Part shown: positions 48,621-64,000 of the stretch, piece after piece | How positions within the stretch are numbered: position 1 is the stretch's first letter | Layout of the letters: each line of letters begins with the position of its first letter | Program-made: the position numbers and the translations under genes | The notes under the pieces: model-generated | The model's database searches: none | What the model was told of the DNA's origin: nothing | The model's input: only the letters and a program-made list of their open reading frames with translations | Source of the DNA: a virus | Reading direction: 5' to 3' (one strand) | Virus genome (UHGV): UHGV-1882326 | DNA length: 64,000 nucleotides

Positions 48621-49292
48621 TTGGAGAAACCGATAAAGAAAATTATTATTATTAATGGTTCTGGTGGAGTTGGTAAGGATGCTTTTGCTAAAAGAGTTAT
48701 TGAAGAAACTGTTAAATTGGCAAAATGTGTTGTTCCAGTTGAAAATGAAAATTATTGTGTAAATCCAGAAATTTTTTATAAAATCAATAATACTTCTATT
48801 ATTGATTATGTAAAAAATATTGCTAGAATGTTTGGTTGGAATGACGAGAAATCTGAAAAAGACAGAAAAATGTTAAGTGACCTAAAGGATTTAATAACGG
48901 TATATAATGATTATCTTTTTAAAGATATTACGACACAAATTAATGATTGGTTGTATTATGACAAAACAAGATTAAATGATATGTACGACCATTCATTTCT
49001 TTTTGTCCACTGTAGAGAGCCTAAAGAAATTGAAAGGATAAAGAATCAATTTCCTAATGACACTTTTACTTTATTAGTACAGAATCCTAAAGTTGCAAAA
49101 GTAACTGGTAATCATGCTGATAGAGAAGTTGAAAATTATAACTATGATTTTATTGTAGTTAATGATTCTAACCTTAGAGCATTAAGAAAAGTTGCTATTG
49201 ACTTTTATAAGAAAATCTTTAATCAAGGTTTTACAAAGTATAAGTTTGTTGCTTCTGATTATGATTTCAGTCCAGAAGAATGGAATGATTAA
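48621..49292 (+). CDS. P-loop nucleotide kinase-like protein (dNMP-kinase-like)
   Basis: 223 aa. Walker A KKIIIINGSGGVGKDAFAK resembles phage dNMP kinase GxxxSGKDT. Confidence 0.5.
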   Translation: MEKPIKKIIIINGSGGVGKDAFAKRVIEETVKLAKCVVPVENENYCVNPEIFYKINNTSIIDYVKNIARMFGWNDEKSEKDRKMLSDLKDLITVYNDYLFKDITTQINDWLYYDKTRLNDMYDHSFLFVHCREPKEIERIKNQFPNDTFTLLVQNPKVAKVTGNHADREVENYNYDFIVVNDSNLRALRKVAIDFYKKIFNQGFTKYKFVASDYDFSPEEWND

Positions 49293-49293
49293 A

Positions 49294-50229
49294 ATGATAG
49301 AAATTGGTAGGACTTATCGTTATAAAGAACTTTGTGAAGCTATAGGAAAAGATAATGTTATAGGTTCTTATAAAACTACTTTACTTAAAAGTATTTATAA
49401 AGATTATGAAGTAATTCATAAAAACGGCTTTTATAAAATCATAAGAAAATATTCACAACAAGAAAAAGATGCAAAAGAGATTAAAGGAATGTATCAAAAA
49501 CTGCTTGAAGCTATATTAAGTAATTTTCTATCTCAACAAGATAATTATTCAGTTTGTACCTCAATGATGGAATTACTTTTAGCTTGTGGGATTATCAATA
49601 CAGATTTTAAATACTGTAGGTATAATATTGATTCTTCTTCTAAAATACTTAAAAGCGACCCTTATGATTTAGAAGAATATATTACAAAATCTTATAATCT
49701 CCTTAGTCGAATGTTTAAAGATATTCTCGACCAACTTGAAAGTAAAGCTCTAATCAAATGCCGAAAAGGTTACAAGCTGTTCAAAGTCAATAACATGGGG
49801 TTACAAAGCGGTAGTAAGGTGGTAACTCTTGGCTCAAAAGAGGAAACGATAATTATCAAGGCTGAGGAAGAAGGACTTAAGGAAATGGGTCTTACTAAGC
49901 TATTTGAAGTATATAGAAACGAAATTAGTATTGAAACATTTAAAAAAATCACAAACAGGAAGATAAAAGAACAGTTTCCAGATTATGACGGTTATTACAA
50001 AGTATATCATATCACTTTAAATCGCACAGGACTTTGGGAGAACAAGAATAATATTTATAAAGAACTTAACAAAAAAATTCAAACTAAGTTATTAAAGAAT
50101 AAAGGTTTATCTGAAATAACGCAATTAAAGAAAATGGTAGACGCTACAATTAATTTATCCAGACCATTTAAAATACAAGAAAATTTAAAGCTTATGAAAA
50201 AGTTGGAAGGAGAGAATAACAATGAGTGA
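49294..50229 (+). CDS. hypothetical early protein, paralogue 2
   Basis: The ORF track gives 49192..50229. The likely start is ATG 49294, directly after the kinase stop. It is paralogous to 47459..48472. Confidence 0.5.
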   Translation: MIEIGRTYRYKELCEAIGKDNVIGSYKTTLLKSIYKDYEVIHKNGFYKIIRKYSQQEKDAKEIKGMYQKLLEAILSNFLSQQDNYSVCTSMMELLLACGIINTDFKYCRYNIDSSSKILKSDPYDLEEYITKSYNLLSRMFKDILDQLESKALIKCRKGYKLFKVNNMGLQSGSKVVTLGSKEETIIIKAEEEGLKEMGLTKLFEVYRNEISIETFKKITNRKIKEQFPDYDGYYKVYHITLNRTGLWENKNNIYKELNKKIQTKLLKNKGLSEITQLKKMVDATINLSRPFKIQENLKLMKKLEGENNNE

Positions 50230-54184: not shown

Positions 54185-54256
54185 AGGGCATTAGCCAAGC
54201 GGAAAGGCAAAACACTTTGACTGTTTCATGCGTAGGTCCGAATCCTACATGCCCTG
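54185..54256 (+). tRNA. tRNA-like element, possible tRNA-Gln(UUG) with atypical T-loop
   Basis: A cloverleaf can be drawn with a 7-bp acceptor stem AGGGCAT/ATGCCCT and a D-arm GCC-aagcggaaa-GGC. The anticodon stem AAACA/TGTTT carries the loop CTTTGAC (anticodon TTG). The T-arm GTAGG-TCCGAAT-CCTAC has C where the near-universal U55 is expected. Confidence 0.45.
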
Positions 54257-54286
54257 TTTATAAAAATAAATGTTTGGTGATTAAAA

Positions 54287-55084
54287 ATGAATACTAATAT
54301 TAAATATTATGAACGTAAAGTTCCAATAGTTGATACTTATTCTGTTAAAGAATTAGAAGAAATTGTGAAAAATTCATATTCTTTTAAAGAAGTAATTTTA
54401 AAATTGGGATATAAAACGCAGAATGGAAGTAATATAAAAACAGTAAGAAACAGATTAGAAAACTTAAACATTGATTATAGTCATTTTGCTTCTACTATGC
54501 AAATAAAAAGAACCTATGAAAATGTATTTTGTAAAAATAGTACAGCTACACAGCATGTTTTAAGACGGTGGTATAAGAAAATAAGTAATGATAATATTTG
54601 TACTATTTGCGGACAGGATAAAATCTGGAATAATAAAGAATTGACTATGATTTTAGACCACATTGATGGCGACAATCATAACAATGTAACTTCAAATCTA
54701 CGGTGGATTTGTCCTAATTGCAACAGTCAGTTGCCTACATTTGCAGGCAGAAATTTAAGAAAAGGTGAAAAAACTGATAATAGTAATATTGGTTATTCTC
54801 CTACAAAAATTAGAAATGTAAAGTTAAAACATACAAGAGAAAAGAAAATTTGTCCTATTTGCAACAAAAATATCCTTTCTAACAGTGATAATAAAATGTG
54901 TATTGATTGCTACAAAAATTATCAATCCAGAAATATTCCTGCTAAAGAAGAGTTAGAAAAATTAATTTATAATACGCCTTTTGTAAAAATTGGTAAAAAA
55001 TACGGGGTATCAGATAACGCTGTAAGAAATTGGTGTAAGAAATACGGCTTACCTTATAAATATAATGATTTACACAAAAGATAA
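54287..55084 (+). CDS. HNH homing endonuclease
   Basis: 265 aa. It carries the motif CTICGQDKIWNNKELTMILDHIDGDNHNNVTSNLRWICPNCNSQ plus extra Cys4 clusters. It is flanked by tRNA-like genes. Confidence 0.75.
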   Translation: MNTNIKYYERKVPIVDTYSVKELEEIVKNSYSFKEVILKLGYKTQNGSNIKTVRNRLENLNIDYSHFASTMQIKRTYENVFCKNSTATQHVLRRWYKKISNDNICTICGQDKIWNNKELTMILDHIDGDNHNNVTSNLRWICPNCNSQLPTFAGRNLRKGEKTDNSNIGYSPTKIRNVKLKHTREKKICPICNKNILSNSDNKMCIDCYKNYQSRNIPAKEELEKLIYNTPFVKIGKKYGVSDNAVRNWCKKYGLPYKYNDLHKR

Positions 55085-55189
55085 TTAATTTATTATGTTT
55101 AAGTCTTGTTGGAAAGAATTAGTAGATATTATAGGTAATCTATTAAACAATGCAAGTTCAACTCTTGCACCTAAATTTTTATCATAAAC

Positions 55190-55263
55190 GGAACAATATT
55201 TCAACTGGTTAGAAAGTTCGGCTCATAACCGAAAAGTTATAGGTTCGAGTCCTATTTGTTCCA
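55190..55263 (+). tRNA. tRNA with CAT anticodon (elongator Met or Ile-lysidine type)
   Basis: Acceptor GGAACAA/TTGTTCC, D-stem TTTC/GAAA, anticodon stem TTCGG/CCGAA with loop CTCATAA (CAT at 55224..55226), T-arm ATAGG-TTCGAGT-CCTAT, discriminator A. It is not initiator-like, having a 1:72 G:C pair and no GGG/CCC in the anticodon stem. Confidence 0.8.
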
Positions 55264-55450
55264 TTAGAAGAATAATTAGTATTGAAATACACCACCTTAT
55301 AATTGTAATGACGTTCTCCCCCTAAAATAACGTTTATTACTGCAATATTAATTGTTCTTCACAATACAAAACAGTAATACAGTATAACAACTCCCACCAC
55401 CAATGTTTATGCTGTATTACTGTTTTTTATAGAACAGTAAGCCAAAAACC

Positions 55451-55472
55451 CCCATTAGCTTTAGCTGATGGG
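55451..55472. repeat. 22-bp palindrome, copy C, at the left end of the tnpB copy 3 element
   Basis: CCCATTAGCTTTAGCTGATGGG, 44 nt upstream of the tnpB copy 3 start. It is the reverse complement of the core of copies A and B. Confidence 0.7.
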
Positions 55473-55515
55473 AAGAATAGCGGAGAACAATTAACTGAGA
55501 GTGAGGTGATTATAG

Positions 55516-56627
55516 ATGTTGGTAGCATACAAATACAGATTGTATCCGAATAAAGAACAACAAGAATATTTTGCTAAATGTTTTGGGTGTGTACGATTTA
55601 TCTATAATCGTATGCTTTCAGATAAGATTGACTATTATAAAGAAACAAAGAAAAAGCTGAATAATACACCTGCTCAGTACAAGAAAAAGTTTGAGTGGCT
55701 AAAAGAAGTAGATTCACTTGCATTAGCAAATGCTCAAATGCTCAAATGAATTTGCAGACAGCCTATAACAATTTTTTCAAATGTCCAGAAGTGGGTTTTC
55801 CAAAATTCAAAAGCAAGAAGAATAATCACTTCTCTTATACTACAAATAATCAGGGAGGAAACATTTATGTGACAGACCGATACATAAAACTCCCTAAGAT
55901 TGGACTTGTTAGAGTTCGGAAACATAGAGATTTTGAAGGACTAATTAAGTCTGTTACTATTTCTAAAAGTCCGTCTGGTAAATACTTTGTTTCAGTATTA
56001 GTAGACCAAAAAGATAAAGAAAAATTAATTCCAAACAATAACCAAATTGGAATTGATTTAGGTATTAAAGAATTTTGTATTACTTCTGATGGAGAGATGA
56101 TTCAAAATCCAAAGTTTCTTAGAAAGTCTGAAAAGAAATTAAGAAAATTACAAAAGGATTTATCTCGTTGTCAAAAAGGAAGTAAAAATAGAGAAAAATG
56201 CAGAATTAAAGTCGCAAGACAACATGAAAAGATTGCAAATCAACGTAAAGATTTTCTACATAAGTTATCTAGGCGATTTATTAATGAAAACCAAATCATT
56301 GCATTAGAAACTTTGAAAATTAAAAATATGATGAGTAATCATAAATTAGCAAAATCAATAGCAGATGTATCATGGTCTGAATTTGTAAGACAATTAGAGT
56401 ATAAGGCTCAGTGGTATGGTAGAGAAATCGTAAGGATTGATACTTGGTATCCATCAAGTCAGATATGCTCTAATTGTGGTCACAAAGACAGAAGAAAGCC
56501 ATTATCAGTAAGAGAATGGATCTGTCCTAATTGTGGTACACATCATGAAAGGGATATAAATGCAGCTATAAATATTCTTAAAGAAGGTTTGAGAATTAAA
56601 ACGGCAGGAACTGTCGAGATAGTCTAA
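55516..56627 (+). pseudogene. tnpB: tnpB copy 3 (IS605-family), frameshifted by an 8-bp tandem duplication
   Basis: It is split into 55516..55749 (MLVAYKYRLYPNKEQQEYFAKCFGCVRFIYNR) and 55695..56627 (RuvC-like domain plus zinc finger CSNCG...[19 protein letters not shown]). The sequence TGCTCAAA occurs twice in tandem at 55731..55746, and removing one copy restores a single ~370-aa frame. Confidence 0.85.
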
Positions 56628-58385: not shown

Positions 58386-61300
58386 CAACCAAGTTATTAC
58401 ATTCAGAACAAAAATCCCCTATATCCTCTTTCTACCGATTGTTACCGCCCTAAATCAGAATAAATCCCCCTAACTCAGAACACGAGATTTCACCCTATAT
58501 TGCAAAACGCCATATGAAGCCCAAGGGAGAAATTATTTGCAATGTCCTATAAATTGGACACCTAAAACACTAATGAAAATTATTTAAGACTTGAAACATT
58601 GCAATTCGCCCACTCGAAAACGCCTACGCAAAAACCATTACTTTTCGACTATAGGGGGTCAAGACACTTTTCGCCAATAGTTCTTTTTAGAACCATTTTT
58701 CCGTTATTCATAAATTTTAATAACGAACAGTGAAATGACAAAACACCTGTCTTTACAACTGACAAGACATCTGACAAGACATTTCTCAATTTTCCACTAT
58801 GGTTATGATATACCACTCTCCCCTAAATTTAGCTACCTGTGACTACTCTTATATACCGTTACAACTCATTTAAGCACCCCTAGAAACGATTTTAATAGAT
58901 AAGACGATTAACTTATCATGTGAAAACTGAAACGCCCACATTTGCCTTGTACTGTTTCATATAAAAAGTGACACATTATCATGCTTTTAAAACCTCTACA
59001 GAAATAATAGTCGAATATTAAACCAGTATACTGGTATACGGCGAATGACCCTTATCCCCCAGTACACAATTACCCCCCTCTATCAGATAATATATTATCT
59101 ATTGTAAAGAGTAGATGACTAAGAGATAGAACTACAAGAATTATAAGAATAGATAAGAGATAAGAGGATTGAGAACTGGATAATATGTTGGCTATTACAT
59201 ACTCGTAAATGTTGCAACCTCCTATTCCGTGTTATCACCTACACCTATAAAACCACTAGACATAAAGAGCAAAATGATACACATATTTTCGTCACATATA
59301 TCTTAAATATTCTTAGACGATTTACTGTGTATTATTGTGGTGAGAAATGATATGAAAAGTATATGGGGTTAAGGTGGTGTAAAAATGGTCTGGGATAGGT
59401 ATGGGGAAATATTATCTCTCATATGTGTTATATATAATATATTAAGATTGAAATAGGTGGGTGAAATATGGGACGAGTAAATAAAAATGAATGAGGGGTT
59501 AATAAGTAGGAAACGGTGAAGTGATGAGAGATGAAAAACTAAGGATTGATATGAACATAAGGATTTAGGAATATAGAGAGCAGAAGGATATATAAGGATA
59601 TATGATATAAGGTGAGAGTGGGCGTGAGTGGGTGTGGAGATAATGATGATAGTTGGGATAGAGCAATAGCAATGGGGGATAGGGGGTAACAGGAGCAATA
59701 GATAGAGAGATAATTGAAATACTATGAATATTGACAAATATTGAGTTGTGGGAGTGTGCGGTGTATCAGCTATTCCGAGTATGCGAAAATCGTATATACG
59801 AATTGTCTGAAAATACCCCCCGGTTATACGTGACTAACAGAATGAGTGTTCGACTAGCCCAGGGGAGGGGGCGATATACTCTGCCCGCATAGGTTCGGAA
59901 CGTCAAAAAACATGGCTATAATAAATCATTATAGACACGTTTGTATGCAAGCGGTTGCACAAAATTGCATATTGCGTTGCATATAATAGAAAGTATTAGT
60001 GAAAGTGATATTTTTTCATAGATATATTTATTGAAGTTATAAGTATATGTTAAAATATTGACGTAATAAGATAATGTTATATATGTGATACCGCACATAG
60101 TATCAGACATCATCCTATCCTTTATCTTCTATCCTCTGCTTTCCCTTCTTAATGTTTCACATGAAACAATATATCTAATCCAGTTCAACTCATATCTATA
60201 TTATATTATTCCGTTTCCGCTTTCCCATCTTACAATCAATCCCACTTGCTATCATATCTCAAACCATATCACGCCATAACACATACCACCACACAACATA
60301 CCCATACCATCTTACATAGTAACAATAACCACATACATAGTATTCAATACTACTTGTAATCTTACTCATATCCCATATCATGTTTTACAATACTATCTCA
60401 TATCCCTATTAATCCACTATGTTAATATGTTACCCATAAACCCATTATCCCTATAGGTTAATATATAAATCATAAACCCTATAACATACTATGTAATAGG
60501 TATTTTATAAACCCATTAACCAACTATGTTATTGAATTATAACATAATTATATGAGTTGTTGTTATTGATATCATTTTAGGCAATACTTTTATCGCAACG
60601 GCTCAATTTTAGTCAATACTTAAAATTTGTACGAAAACTATTGGCATTTTAGCAATAATGATACACACTAAAACGTTTAATATATATATTATATATGGCA
60701 CGAAAATGTATGTGTTATTGTTTGAAAAATTGCTACAATTTTCATTATGTTAGCACAACTCCAATTTTTTGGTTTACATAAGGCGTGAATATTCAGACGC
60801 AATTTGAATTTTAGAATAATTTAGCTGTACTTATTAATAAGTGGCGTTTTTAATAAGTGTATCTAATAATAAATGGCAAGCGATCCAATGCCGGATTTAT
60901 GTAAATGCCGTTTAAAGCCCTTAGAAGCCGTTTTAAAGCGTTTTAGGGCTTTCAAAGCATATTTTATCATTAAATGTTTTCCAATCGAAACTATGTTATG
61001 TGGTATTGAAAACTACGTTATTATCTGACAATTTGGCACTCATTAGTGGTAAGTGCTAATAAGTAAACATATGTGAATTATTGCCATATATGAATAGTAA
61101 ATAAATGTTTATTAATGGGCTTCTAACATAAAAGCAAAAACACCTATATAAGCAATGGGGCTTGTATGTATGCTTACTTATATATATGTATATATGCATA
61201 GTGTTTTATATGGGACTTGCATATGCTTTTATATAGTAGTCTGCTTTTTTTTGTAAATCCCTTATATATAGGAAGTAATACAATCGAATAAATGTTTTTA

Positions 61301-61494
61301 TGAAAAATGTATAAAAAAATATATGTTTTTTGGTAGTTTTTACCATTGAGTATATATATACTTTTTGCTATACTTGCATTATCAAATGAATCAAATCATT
61401 TCCATATCGGAAATATTAAGAATATACGTTCTGTATATTCCAAAAAAAATAAAATTAAACATTAAATCATACATATAAAAGGAGAAGAAAAGCT

Positions 61495-61988
61495 ATGCAA
61501 AATATTACATCTGCAATTACATCAATAAATTCAAAAAAAGCCCCCGCCATTTATTCAATGCCAAAAGCTATTGAGTTAATGAAGGGGAAGAAGGTTATTG
61601 ACATAGGGGGGGGAGATATGATACCGCTGTATCTAAAGCTAGTGAATATGGCGCAACGGTAGCAATATACGATCCTTATAACCGCACCGCTGACCATAAC
61701 GCTATTGTTTTAAAAAACACTTATGATGTTGCTGTAATAAGTAATGTGTTAAATGTCATTCCCGACTTAGACAGCCGGTTAAAAGTTCTTAGTTTGGCGT
61801 TGAGTAAAGCGCACACTGTACTTATTACTGTATATGAGGGCGACAAAACAGGCATAGGCAGACAGACAGGAATAGACAGTTGGCAAGAAAACAGAAAACT
61901 TAATGATTATTATAAAAATATTAAATCATTTTTACCAAACACTAAAAAATGCGGAAAAATGATTGTAATAAAACGCAATTCTAATTAA
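61495..61988 (+). pseudogene. SAM-dependent methyltransferase gene interrupted at a G8 homopolymer (candidate phase-variable gene)
   Basis: ATG 61495 with an AAAGGAGAAG RBS. The frame stops 23 codons after the poly-G tract at 61606..61613. With one extra G it reads through to 61988 as a 164-aa protein. That product carries motif I VIDIGGGRYD, an acidic VAIYDPY and motif DVAVISNVLNVIPD, typical of class I SAM MTases. Confidence 0.6.
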
Positions 61989-62011
61989 ATTCAAAAAGGA
62001 GAAGAAAAACA

Positions 62012-62302
62012 ATGAAAAAAATATTAAAAGCAAGCACAAAAGCGGGTTCCCGTTGGATTTTAGCGGCAAAAAACAATGAAGGATATGAATTATCTGATAT
62101 TTACGACAGTTATTCCGTAAATAAAGAAAAAGCTTATAATTGGTGCTTAAATCAGTACAATAGCACTGAAAATTCTGAAAACTTCCGTATAATATCCCAT
62201 AATTCTAACTTCTTTACAATCGCATGGGAAGAGTACGGAAAAGAACCGAAATTACATATTGAAACGGCAAAAAATTCTTATGTTATCTTATTAAATCAGT
62301 AG
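62012..62302 (+). CDS. small hypothetical protein
   Basis: 96-aa ORF with an AAAGGAGAAG RBS. Confidence 0.35.
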   Translation: MKKILKASTKAGSRWILAAKNNEGYELSDIYDSYSVNKEKAYNWCLNQYNSTENSENFRIISHNSNFFTIAWEEYGKEPKLHIETAKNSYVILLNQ

Positions 62303-62314
62303 GGGGCTTATATT

Positions 62315-62572
62315 ATGAGATTAAATGCAAAAGAAAGATTAAGTTATCAGAAAAAAGAACCTATTGCAGTATATGGTATGTCAAATTTTGGCGGTATCGC
62401 CATTATTGATATAATCTACGGCATAGAAGATTATATTGTTTGGTATGATTCACAAATTGATATTGAAAAGCGTAAAATACACATTAGCAAGGTATATTAT
62501 TCTGAAAATGGCGGATATTTTAAACCATATGGAAGTTTATATGTAAAGCTTTCAGAATGTTTAAGAGTATGA
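62315..62572 (+). CDS. small hypothetical protein
   Basis: 85-aa ORF. A terminator hairpin AGGGATgcattttttcttgtATCCCT plus a T-run lies at 62584..62616. Confidence 0.35.
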   Translation: MRLNAKERLSYQKKEPIAVYGMSNFGGIAIIDIIYGIEDYIVWYDSQIDIEKRKIHISKVYYSENGGYFKPYGSLYVKLSECLRV

Positions 62573-63395
62573 ACATAAATAAAAAGGGATGCATTTTTTC
62601 TTGTATCCCTTTTTTGCATATCTTTTTTGCTGTCTGGATACGATCCTGTATTGATACAGTCATAAACCTATTAACATATTTATATTATAGGTTTATAGCT
62701 GTATGAGTGCATGAAAACAGATGATATATCGCATCTGTTTTTTTGTGTGTTCAACTTTGTACCTTTACAACTAAAAATGAACGATATATCTATAACGCTG
62801 TATAAGGGCTTTTATAGGCTTTTTTGCGTTACTATGGGCTTTTTATATGTGTTGTGTTAGTGCATGGGCTTATATTGCCTTTTATGGGGCTTGTATGGTA
62901 CGATCTGGACTTTACCAGACATTAACAGACAGACATTAAACCGTTGCTATATTATGTAAACTTTGCTTATAAAGCGTTTAAAGACGGTTTAAAGCGTTTA
63001 TATGCTGTAAACGTATAAAGTACCATGTAAAGGGTTTAAAAGGGCTGTATCGGGTTTATCGGGCTTTATATGTCATATATATAGTATATGATATGGCAAG
63101 CGATCAAAAAAGCAAGGTATGGACGTTTTTTGTTCCTCTGCGATATTATCAATATATCGATAATGCGATATAACGCACGTAACGCCTATTTAAAGCCGTT
63201 TAATCGTTTAGGCGTACACGGTATAGACTATAGGCATTTAAACGGCTGTATAAAGCTTGTATGACTTTGTAATGTGTTCGGTTTACCGGTTTATGGCAAG
63301 TGTTCCGGTTTATGTTTACTTCTGATTTTATCCGGTATTATATCCGGTTTATACTATTGTTACACTTTTAACGATGTATACTATATTAGTTATGT

Positions 63396-63479
63396 CTAAC
63401 TATAACCACAATATTTTTTGTGTTATCTCAAAATGTTTTAGATTAGTAGTAACTAATCATAAGTTGTGGTTATAGTTAG
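63396..63479. repeat. perfect 16-bp inverted repeat pair (origin/regulatory-like)
   Basis: CTAACTATAACCACAA at 63396..63411 pairs with TTGTGGTTATAGTTAG at 63464..63479, 52 bp apart. Reiterated TAACT/AGTTAG and CCGGTTTAT motifs lie nearby. Confidence 0.8.
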
Positions 63480-63893
63480 GTATATCTAATGATAGTTGGT
63501 TATGACTAACGTTAATGTAGACTAACTGTAGTTAGTTTAGGCTAATTGTGTCTATTGTAGATACAATTCAAATCGAACAGACGTTTGGGTAATTTTGACA
63601 ACGGAAATCGGCAAGCGGAAAAAGGGAAATTTGCCCCAAAGGGTAATATCGTTTTTTAAATTTTCCCCACGGATTTATAATCTACTTTAAAATTTGAAAA
63701 GTCAATTTGAAAATGAAAAGTTTTTTCTTTTTTATTTTTTCTTTTCCTTTATAATAAGGAAGTCTTTCATTTCTTTTATTTTTTTAATCTTTTTATATTA
63801 TATCTATTGATTTTTCTTTTCTTTAATGGTATAGTGCAACCATAGTAACAAAGTAATAAACAGTATAAATAAGTAAATAGGAGGATTTTAAAA

Positions 63894-64000
63894 ATGAGAT
63901 TAAGAGAAGGAAAGCTTATATCAGAATGGGAAGATGAATATGAAAACAAAGCGTTAATTGAAGAAGTGGAAATCAAACCACATAAAGAAGCTAAACTGGA
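63894..64000 (+). CDS. hypothetical protein, 5' partial at window edge
   Basis: ATG 63894 preceded by AGGAGG. It begins MRLREGKLISEWEDEYENK and is open to the end of the window. Confidence 0.4.
   Translation, partial: MRLREGKLISEWEDEYENKALIEEVEIKPHKEAKL

Follow-up and report, generated by a model that had tools for sequence, protein, structure and literature searches.

The closest described systems are the phasevarions, in which repeat-driven phase variation acts on the DNA methyltransferases of restriction-modification systems (type III mod and type I hsd), with a high rate and reversibility as the defining traits of phase variation (PMC11868660). An in silico screen of N. meningitidis took as its criterion a homopolymer of at least six together with length polymorphism between strains (PMC5084427). 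In phages, hypermutable polyG tracts are described as controlling genes of Campylobacter phages, in a study cited by PMC12823448 (Sorensen et al., 2021, Cell Rep 35:109214).

The locus presented here, in which a run of eight G (G8) interrupts a small gene for a putative class I SAM-dependent methyltransferase, shares several features with the phasevarions, namely a repeat inside a methyltransferase ORF, a frame that is toggled by a one-unit change, and intact (ON) and defective (OFF) alleles among relatives. The phasevarion enzymes, however, are DNA methyltransferases with target-recognition domains, encoded on bacterial chromosomes and governed by long, conserved tracts with measured, high and reversible switching, whereas the enzyme here is phage-encoded, has 164 aa and is probably of a non-DNA type, its ON alleles carry G5, G6 or no tract, and its frame-shifting alleles are −1 only. 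As in the Campylobacter phages, this is a phage gene whose frame follows the length of a G-tract; it differs from them in being an accessory methyltransferase of what may be an early region, and in that G8 occurs in one genome only. The tracts of the Campylobacter phages reportedly lie in receptor-binding protein genes, where they are conserved and yet variable within lysates.

Indel hot spots at homopolymers scale with run length, and ordinary homopolymer frameshift pseudogenes offer a further likeness, in that a non-essential gene is put out of action when one base is lost in or next to a short run of G, the run is hit in separate recurrences, and relatives carry unrelated lesions or an outright deletion. 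Unlike such pseudogenes, the OFF alleles of this phage and of one relative (L040) look recent, with no secondary decay, and the tract is longer than that of its parent. A slippery-like heptamer, G_GGG_GGA, with a downstream ORF in the −1 frame is also reminiscent of the recoding sites of dnaX and of the phage tail chaperone genes G/GT. Taken against these systems, the locus would be a simple-sequence contingency locus in the weak sense alone, as conservation of a long tract is lacking.

In the 64-kb stretch of phage DNA that was analysed (the window, with a G+C content of 31.5%), the + strand reads GACATA GGGGGGGG AGATATG, where GGGGGGGG is the G8 tract at positions 61606–61613. This is the only run of G or C of at least seven in the window, with C runs reaching 6 and other G runs 5. 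G8 or C8 was expected 0.10 times per window and was present in nine of 100 dinucleotide-preserving shuffles, so that the tract is indeed unusual in such low-GC DNA, as an earlier note on this sequence had it, though not extreme. The features of the locus are the following:

61477..61484, + strand: Shine-Dalgarno region AAAAGGAG, with GGAG 10 nt 5' of the ATG, read from the sequence
61495..61662, + strand: frame-0 stub ORF of 55 codons plus TAG, with an N-terminus that agrees with those of P0001 and P0134, both of them intact homologues
61606..61613, + strand: G8 tract in the glycine codons of motif I, corresponding to the GGAGGGGGG of the nearest intact alleles once its A is removed
61614..61988, + strand: rest of the gene, encoding methyltransferase residues 41–164 and then TAA, fully open in the −1 frame
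62012..62302, + strand: 96-aa gene with its own Shine-Dalgarno sequence, syntenic in all relatives, no significant family match
62315..62572, + strand: 85-aa co-directional gene, syntenic in relatives, no family match

The codons of D-I-G-G-G (motif I) span the G8 tract. In the G8 allele the ORF that begins at ATG 61495 ends at TAG 61660–61662, after 55 codons and not the 47 counted previously; residues 1–40 of this stub are the genuine methyltransferase N-terminus through D-I-G-G-G, and residues 41–55 are an out-of-frame tail. The −1 frame is without stops from 61614 to TAA 61986–61988, and this part (61614..61988) encodes the motif II residue D60, an ISNVLNVI block and a TVYEGD...DSWQENR block. 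When other tract lengths were simulated, G9 gave 164 aa, as had been proposed, G6 gave 163 aa and not the 164 aa proposed for it as well, and G7 and G10 led to an immediate stop. The frame is thus switched by a one-unit change in the tract, with G8 being OFF and with G9 or G6 bringing the frame back. The 29-nt leader of the gene is also found before the next gene, forming a direct repeat (D3, 61477–61505 and 61994–62022) that is 86% identical.

The frame-restored G9 product matches Pfam Methyltransf_23 (PF13489) with 29.9 bits, above the gathering cut-off of 27, and an E value of 5.4e-7. The match covers residues 29–129 and therefore spans the frameshift junction, in agreement with the claim of the earlier note that G8 falls exactly at the motif I codons of a real class I SAM methyltransferase gene. 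The note had also called for a check of the fold of the fused product, and this returned a confident Rossmann-type methyltransferase model: the AlphaFold model made from 83 homologues (pLDDT 91.3, pTM 0.88) alternates strands and helices in the manner of class I methyltransferases and has a Rossmann-like alpha/beta fold, with predicted strand 1 at residues 33–37, strand 2 at residues 55–59, and the Gly-rich motif I after strand 1. All 83 homologues share residues D36, G38 and G40 of motif I and D60 at the end of strand 2. Other features invariant in the family are an N-terminal TS..TSIN..KAP motif, which is specific to it, and the TVYEGD...DSWQENR block. By profile match and predicted fold, the product is a class I SAM-dependent methyltransferase.

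Motifs I to IV had been described as intact. The motif IV of DNA methyltransferases, (D/N/S)PP(Y/F/W), is absent, there being no PP dipeptide in the 164-aa product, and DPYN at residues 60–63 is the end of strand 2 and not motif IV. The C5 DNA-methyltransferase signatures PCQ and ENV are likewise absent from the 164-aa product. A target-recognition domain and DNA-methyltransferase structural neighbours were looked for and neither was found, the closest folds being small-molecule and tRNA methyltransferases. Motifs and modelled fold therefore argue against a DNA methyltransferase. The analogy drawn previously with phase-variable methyltransferases fails because motif IV and the target-recognition domain are absent and the nearest folds are of a non-DNA kind, and a phasevarion reading of the locus was rejected on the same grounds. 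PDB sequence and profile searches, NCBIfam and PADLOC gave no specific function, and PHROGs gave matches to unknown-function families only. The same domain is found fused inside phage proteins of 468–1232 aa among predicted viral structures (TM 0.82–0.89, 29–40% identity), with BFVD examples from siphoviruses including A0A8S5M7J1, A0A8S5UCF8 and A0A516LL04, one of which is annotated as a leucine-rich-repeat protein.

The phage itself is a tailed phage of ~100 kb from gut metagenomes, with tape-measure and terminase-type late genes, and near-complete related contigs have lengths of ~100–108 kb. A distant link to the Enterocloster phages PMBT24 and CB457P1 consists only of late-gene matches of ~600 nt at 77% (window ~35.5–36.1 kb). 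Three small genes run in the same direction here, the methyltransferase gene leading and the 96-aa and 85-aa genes following, and this trio is syntenic in every relative. Around the trio are AT-rich, ORF-poor flanks at 58400–61480 (~3 kb) and 62600–64000 (~1.4 kb), which are 83–94% conserved over most of their length and which are likewise without called genes in relatives; a unit of ~36 nt occurs in three copies at 60423–60531. Rfam and tRNA scans of these flanks gave nothing adjoining the gene, and a promoter and terminator scan near the gene was at chance level. An origin, promoters or non-coding RNAs are possibilities for what these flanks contain.

The neighbourhood of the gene in the relatives L043 and L044 includes an N6_N4 DNA methyltransferase, Sequestin and a 421-aa GmrSD_N (DUF262) protein, as well as ArdC-N with MPTase-PolyVal, ThyX and a guanylate kinase, and a weak AcrIC5 match was obtained in L004. 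Such DNA-modification and anti-defence-type neighbours in relatives suggest that this is an early or accessory region. Further upstream in the window there is a mobile-element-type cluster (54185–56627), made up of tRNA-Gln (54185–54256), an HNH endonuclease ORF (54287–55084), tRNA-Met (55190–55263) and a TnpB-like ORF of 310 aa (55695–56627) with OrfB_IS605 and Cas12f1-like TNB domains. The HNH gene looks inserted between the tRNAs, since 54209–55093 has no counterpart in L043. Two ORFs at 48621–49292 and 49192–50229 (+ strand), neither of which has a family match, overlap by ~100 nt in different frames; this overlap (48621–50229) may be an artefact of placing the start at an upstream TTG, or may mark another split gene.

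Within the close clade, ~20 distinct intact proteins were identified, with lengths of 164 aa (one of 166 aa). The nearest of these, P0134, is identical to the frame-restored window product at 162 of 164 residues and was found in three samples (L043, L044 and L045), whose genes differ from that of the window by 4–5 substitutions in 494 nt (99% identical). In all three the tract is GGAGGGGGGAGA, with the codons GGA GGG GGG AGA, and reads GGAGGGGGG where the window has G8, which indicates that the G8 of the window is G2 + G6 after loss of the interrupting A. The proposal that G9 is the ON state is therefore not borne out by the related genomes, as the nearest ON alleles have GGAGGGGGG and no G9 allele was present in any collection searched.

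GGA GGG GGG AGA is also the reading of the ON alleles of L002 and L003, of one contig from IMG/VR and of one that is binned in a "Bacilli bacterium" MAG. The contig L047 (CAAGHO010000049.1, 85.8 kb), from the human gut MAG "Bacilli bacterium" HGM10839, has an intact ON allele GGAGGGGGGAGA, and its binning in a Bacilli MAG may be a weak pointer to the host. Other ON alleles read GGC GGG GGG AAA (GGCGGGGGGAAA, in L048), GGA GGG GGA AAA (G5, in L001) and GGC GGT GGC AAG, without a G run (in L004 and L005). A long tract is thus not conserved across the lineage, the ON alleles having G6, G5 or no run, with G8 seen in the window only. Alleles with +1, G7 or a reversion were not found, and the frame-shifting length changes in relatives were all −1. 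With regard to the collections covered, the IMG/VR and JGI metagenome scans returned relatives at ≤43% identity, except for one ON contig, the GTDB genome scan returned one ON allele, in a MAG, and the DNA of the locus had no match among deposited phage genomes. Exact look-ups of three window products, namely the 55-aa stub, the 80-aa ORF 3' of it and the adjacent protein of 96 aa, found no second copy on record, and the G8 allele is therefore known from a single assembly.

OFF alleles in relatives were retrieved by searching with the 55-aa N-terminal stub of the window; their contigs come from the public records SRR13336864, ERR11830053, ERZ28578236 and ERR13446984. This query misses frameshifts before about codon 30, for example in the A7 run at 61533–61539, and any claim of a hot spot is therefore semi-quantitative. 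Three of the OFF alleles have G5: L040 reads GGAGGGGG-AGA, with the rest of the gene open to the contig edge and a dN/dS of 0.10–0.16; L041 reads GGAGGGGG-AAA; and L046 reads GGCGGGGG-AAA, with a stub of 55 aa as in the window and an ON counterpart, L048, that has G6. These three are on short contigs or close to contig ends, and in L041 and L046 the sequence departs from that of the gene as the contig end is neared. In L042 (ERR13446984, a contig of 102,910 bp) there is instead a deletion of 341 nt, which starts at the tract and lies between two GGAAA copies, one of them being the 3' edge of the tract. A methyltransferase remnant of 49 aa (L042 3001–3154) is situated immediately 5' of the conserved 96-aa gene.

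The OFF alleles are 27–58 substitutions apart, with L040 and L041 being closer (10 differences in 162 nt); these two may reflect one shared ancestral event. Given the different sequence backgrounds, a single 12-nt stretch would have been the site of no fewer than three or four separate events, each a −1 change or a deletion. The polymorphism in tract length comprises G6 in ON alleles (L002, L043–45, L047 and L048), and G5 (L040, L041 and L046) and G8 (the window) in OFF alleles, with frameshifts at the tract in about one sixth of the distinct alleles observed. Among the products listed for the close clade, there were no truncated ones of 60–130 aa that would point to frameshifts elsewhere.

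Lesions of other kinds are found in a sister clade (~57% identical), where an in-frame deletion of 25 aa, removing strand 2 and the invariant D60, is present in six 90% clusters, a frameshift after GRQ is present in five clusters, one with 60 member sequences, and there are additional internal deletions. The variant proteins of this clade are P0096, P0099, P0101, P0104, P0105 and P0107, and P0074, P0077, P0079, P0082 and P0088. These variants should be catalytically dead, and the occurrence of an identical lesion across several 90% clusters suggests that dead alleles in the sister clade are long-lived. The many defective alleles in the family suggest in turn that loss of the enzyme is tolerated in nature.

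With regard to the age of the lesion, the window and L043 differ 3' of the shift by two substitutions, of which one is synonymous and the other is not. When the window is set against intact relatives at a greater distance, its dN/dS 3' of the shift is 0.11–0.24, compared with 0.08–0.14 between intact genes. Purifying selection is therefore still visible 3' of the shift, which suggests that the lesion is recent; on these substitution patterns it is taken to be recent, or not real.

The codons of the tract are atypical for the genome. In the 47 long ORFs of the window, Gly is encoded by GGT (55%), GGA (28%), GGC (11%) and GGG (6.4%), and none of 106 Gly-Gly dicodons is GGG-GGG, so that with GGG rare and GGG-GGG absent the G6 of the ON alleles stands out. 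The methyltransferase gene, however, has four GGC, three GGG, three GGA and no GGT codons, and its G+C content of 35% is slightly above that of the window. G-rich codons were for this reason rejected as proof of selected mutability, as the gene is without any GGT, and a gene-specific codon bias would account for the G6 as well as selection for mutability.

The explanation that we favour, in what is an evenly balanced judgement, is that the window holds a real and recent loss-of-function allele of an accessory class I SAM methyltransferase, at a site that is a recurrent warm spot for frameshifts. The motif I (D-I-G-G-G) of the parent would have been encoded by GGA GGG GGG AGA, in which G6 uses the rarest Gly codon of the genome twice. 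Loss of the interrupting A would have merged G2 and G6 into G8, shifting the frame by −1 and leaving a 55-aa stub without the SAM-binding fold. The same 12-nt G/A-rich stretch appears to have been struck separately in relatives, in the G6 to G5 alleles and in the 341-nt deletion, which is what is meant here by a warm spot, and the lesions most likely come from slippage during replication, or from misalignment, in this G-rich sequence. Counting against this explanation, an A that is not part of a repeat is not what slippage most commonly removes, and intermediates for two-step routes (A to G, giving G9, and then −1; or G6 to G5 and then A to G) were not seen in this background.

Under this explanation of recurrent loss, OFF alleles would arise repeatedly, be tolerated, and possibly be favoured at times. 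The new G8 should slip more readily than the parent tract, and a change from G8 to G9 would remake the same protein, so that reversion of G8 by +1 slippage is mechanistically possible. The gene appears dispensable because several kinds of dead allele are common across the family, and from these natural alleles it appears to be either dispensable or conditionally costly. Taken as a whole, the locus has the appearance of an accessory gene with a mutational hot spot, and not of an evolved, conserved switch.

It is somewhat improbable, though the strongest of the alternatives, that the G8 is a sequencing or assembly error, in which case the true sequence would be GGAGGGGGG and the gene intact. Such an error would agree with G8 being the longest G/C homopolymer in the window, with an allele that is known from one assembly with no exact copies on record, and with the fact that the window differs from the three intact alleles by the missing base and the 4–5 substitutions and by nothing else. 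The absent base is, however, an A between Gs and not a miscounted G, and OFF alleles at the tract are present in four further assemblies, all independent and made by two pipelines (Logan and ENA), which suggests that genuine frameshifts are common here. Furthermore, 28 A/T runs of at least seven sit within intact long ORFs, indicating that the assembly has no general tendency to homopolymer errors; the other 18 runs tested (15 A/T runs of at least seven and three C6) are intergenic or fall within the window's ORF-poor tail, with genes placed by eye. For a genome-wide comparison of indels, the flanks of L043 are mosaic, at 74–95% identity to the window, whereas the gene itself is 99% identical.

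A true contingency locus, with a tract kept for its mutability and reversible, high-frequency slipped-strand switching between ON and OFF as bet-hedging against host defences, is unlikely. This is the reading closest to the phase-variation switch proposed in the earlier note, which is supported in that a change in length would restore the gene and relatives show an ON/OFF polymorphism, and is not supported in that no long tract is conserved and the changes are −1 only. The length polymorphism at one intragenic G-tract (G6 ON; G5 and G8 OFF) has both properties used in the N. meningitidis comparison, a homopolymer of at least six and a difference in length between strains (PMC5084427), and polyG-controlled phage genes are known from the Campylobacter phages, as cited in PMC12823448 (Sorensen et al., 2021). 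The OFF alleles of the window and L040 are also free of further decay 3' of the shift, and GGG-GGG is otherwise avoided in the genome, but the G-rich Gly codons of this gene, which has no GGT, may reflect its own codon use and not selection for mutability. The ON tracts, moreover, are short (G5–G6) and in some alleles missing (GGC GGT GGC), no G9, G7 or +1 allele was found, and the window allele is more than one slippage step from the nearest ON alleles. One relative has deleted the gene and the sister clade carries lesions that are not reversible. The fuller proposition, that the G-tract is a selectively maintained contingency locus of gut tailed phages that toggles an early-region, possibly defence-related, non-DNA methyltransferase in natural populations, is a little more doubtful still.

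Production of the full-length enzyme from G8 by recoding, through −1 ribosomal frameshifting on G_GGG_GGA or through transcriptional slippage, is highly improbable: the downstream frame is −1, an X_XXY_YYZ heptamer G_GGG_GGA lies in the zero frame at 61608–61614 and a −1 slip would yield exactly the G9 product, but, unlike at dnaX and G/GT, there is no stimulatory structure (the downstream RNA, 61600–61700, with an MFE of −18.6 kcal/mol and z +0.92, is equalled or bettered by 165 of 200 shuffles), the two-frame layout is not conserved, a single continuous ORF being present in most relatives, and the OFF alleles of relatives are without the heptamer.

Whichever explanation holds, the annotation should read as a frameshifted class I SAM methyltransferase and not as two small ORFs, and should the G8 be an artefact, the gene should be annotated as intact. 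The locus is a test case for short homopolymers as contingency loci in phages beyond those of Campylobacter, and if the contingency reading were true, it would be a phage-borne equivalent of the phase variation of bacteria, in a gene not concerned with receptor binding and in phages not of Campylobacter. If the OFF alleles are real, wild populations of one clade of gut phages repeatedly inactivate a single accessory methyltransferase, and do so at one short G-tract, which would mark the gene as conditionally costly or dispensable and would offer a lead to its function, for example as a trigger of, or counter-measure to, host defence.
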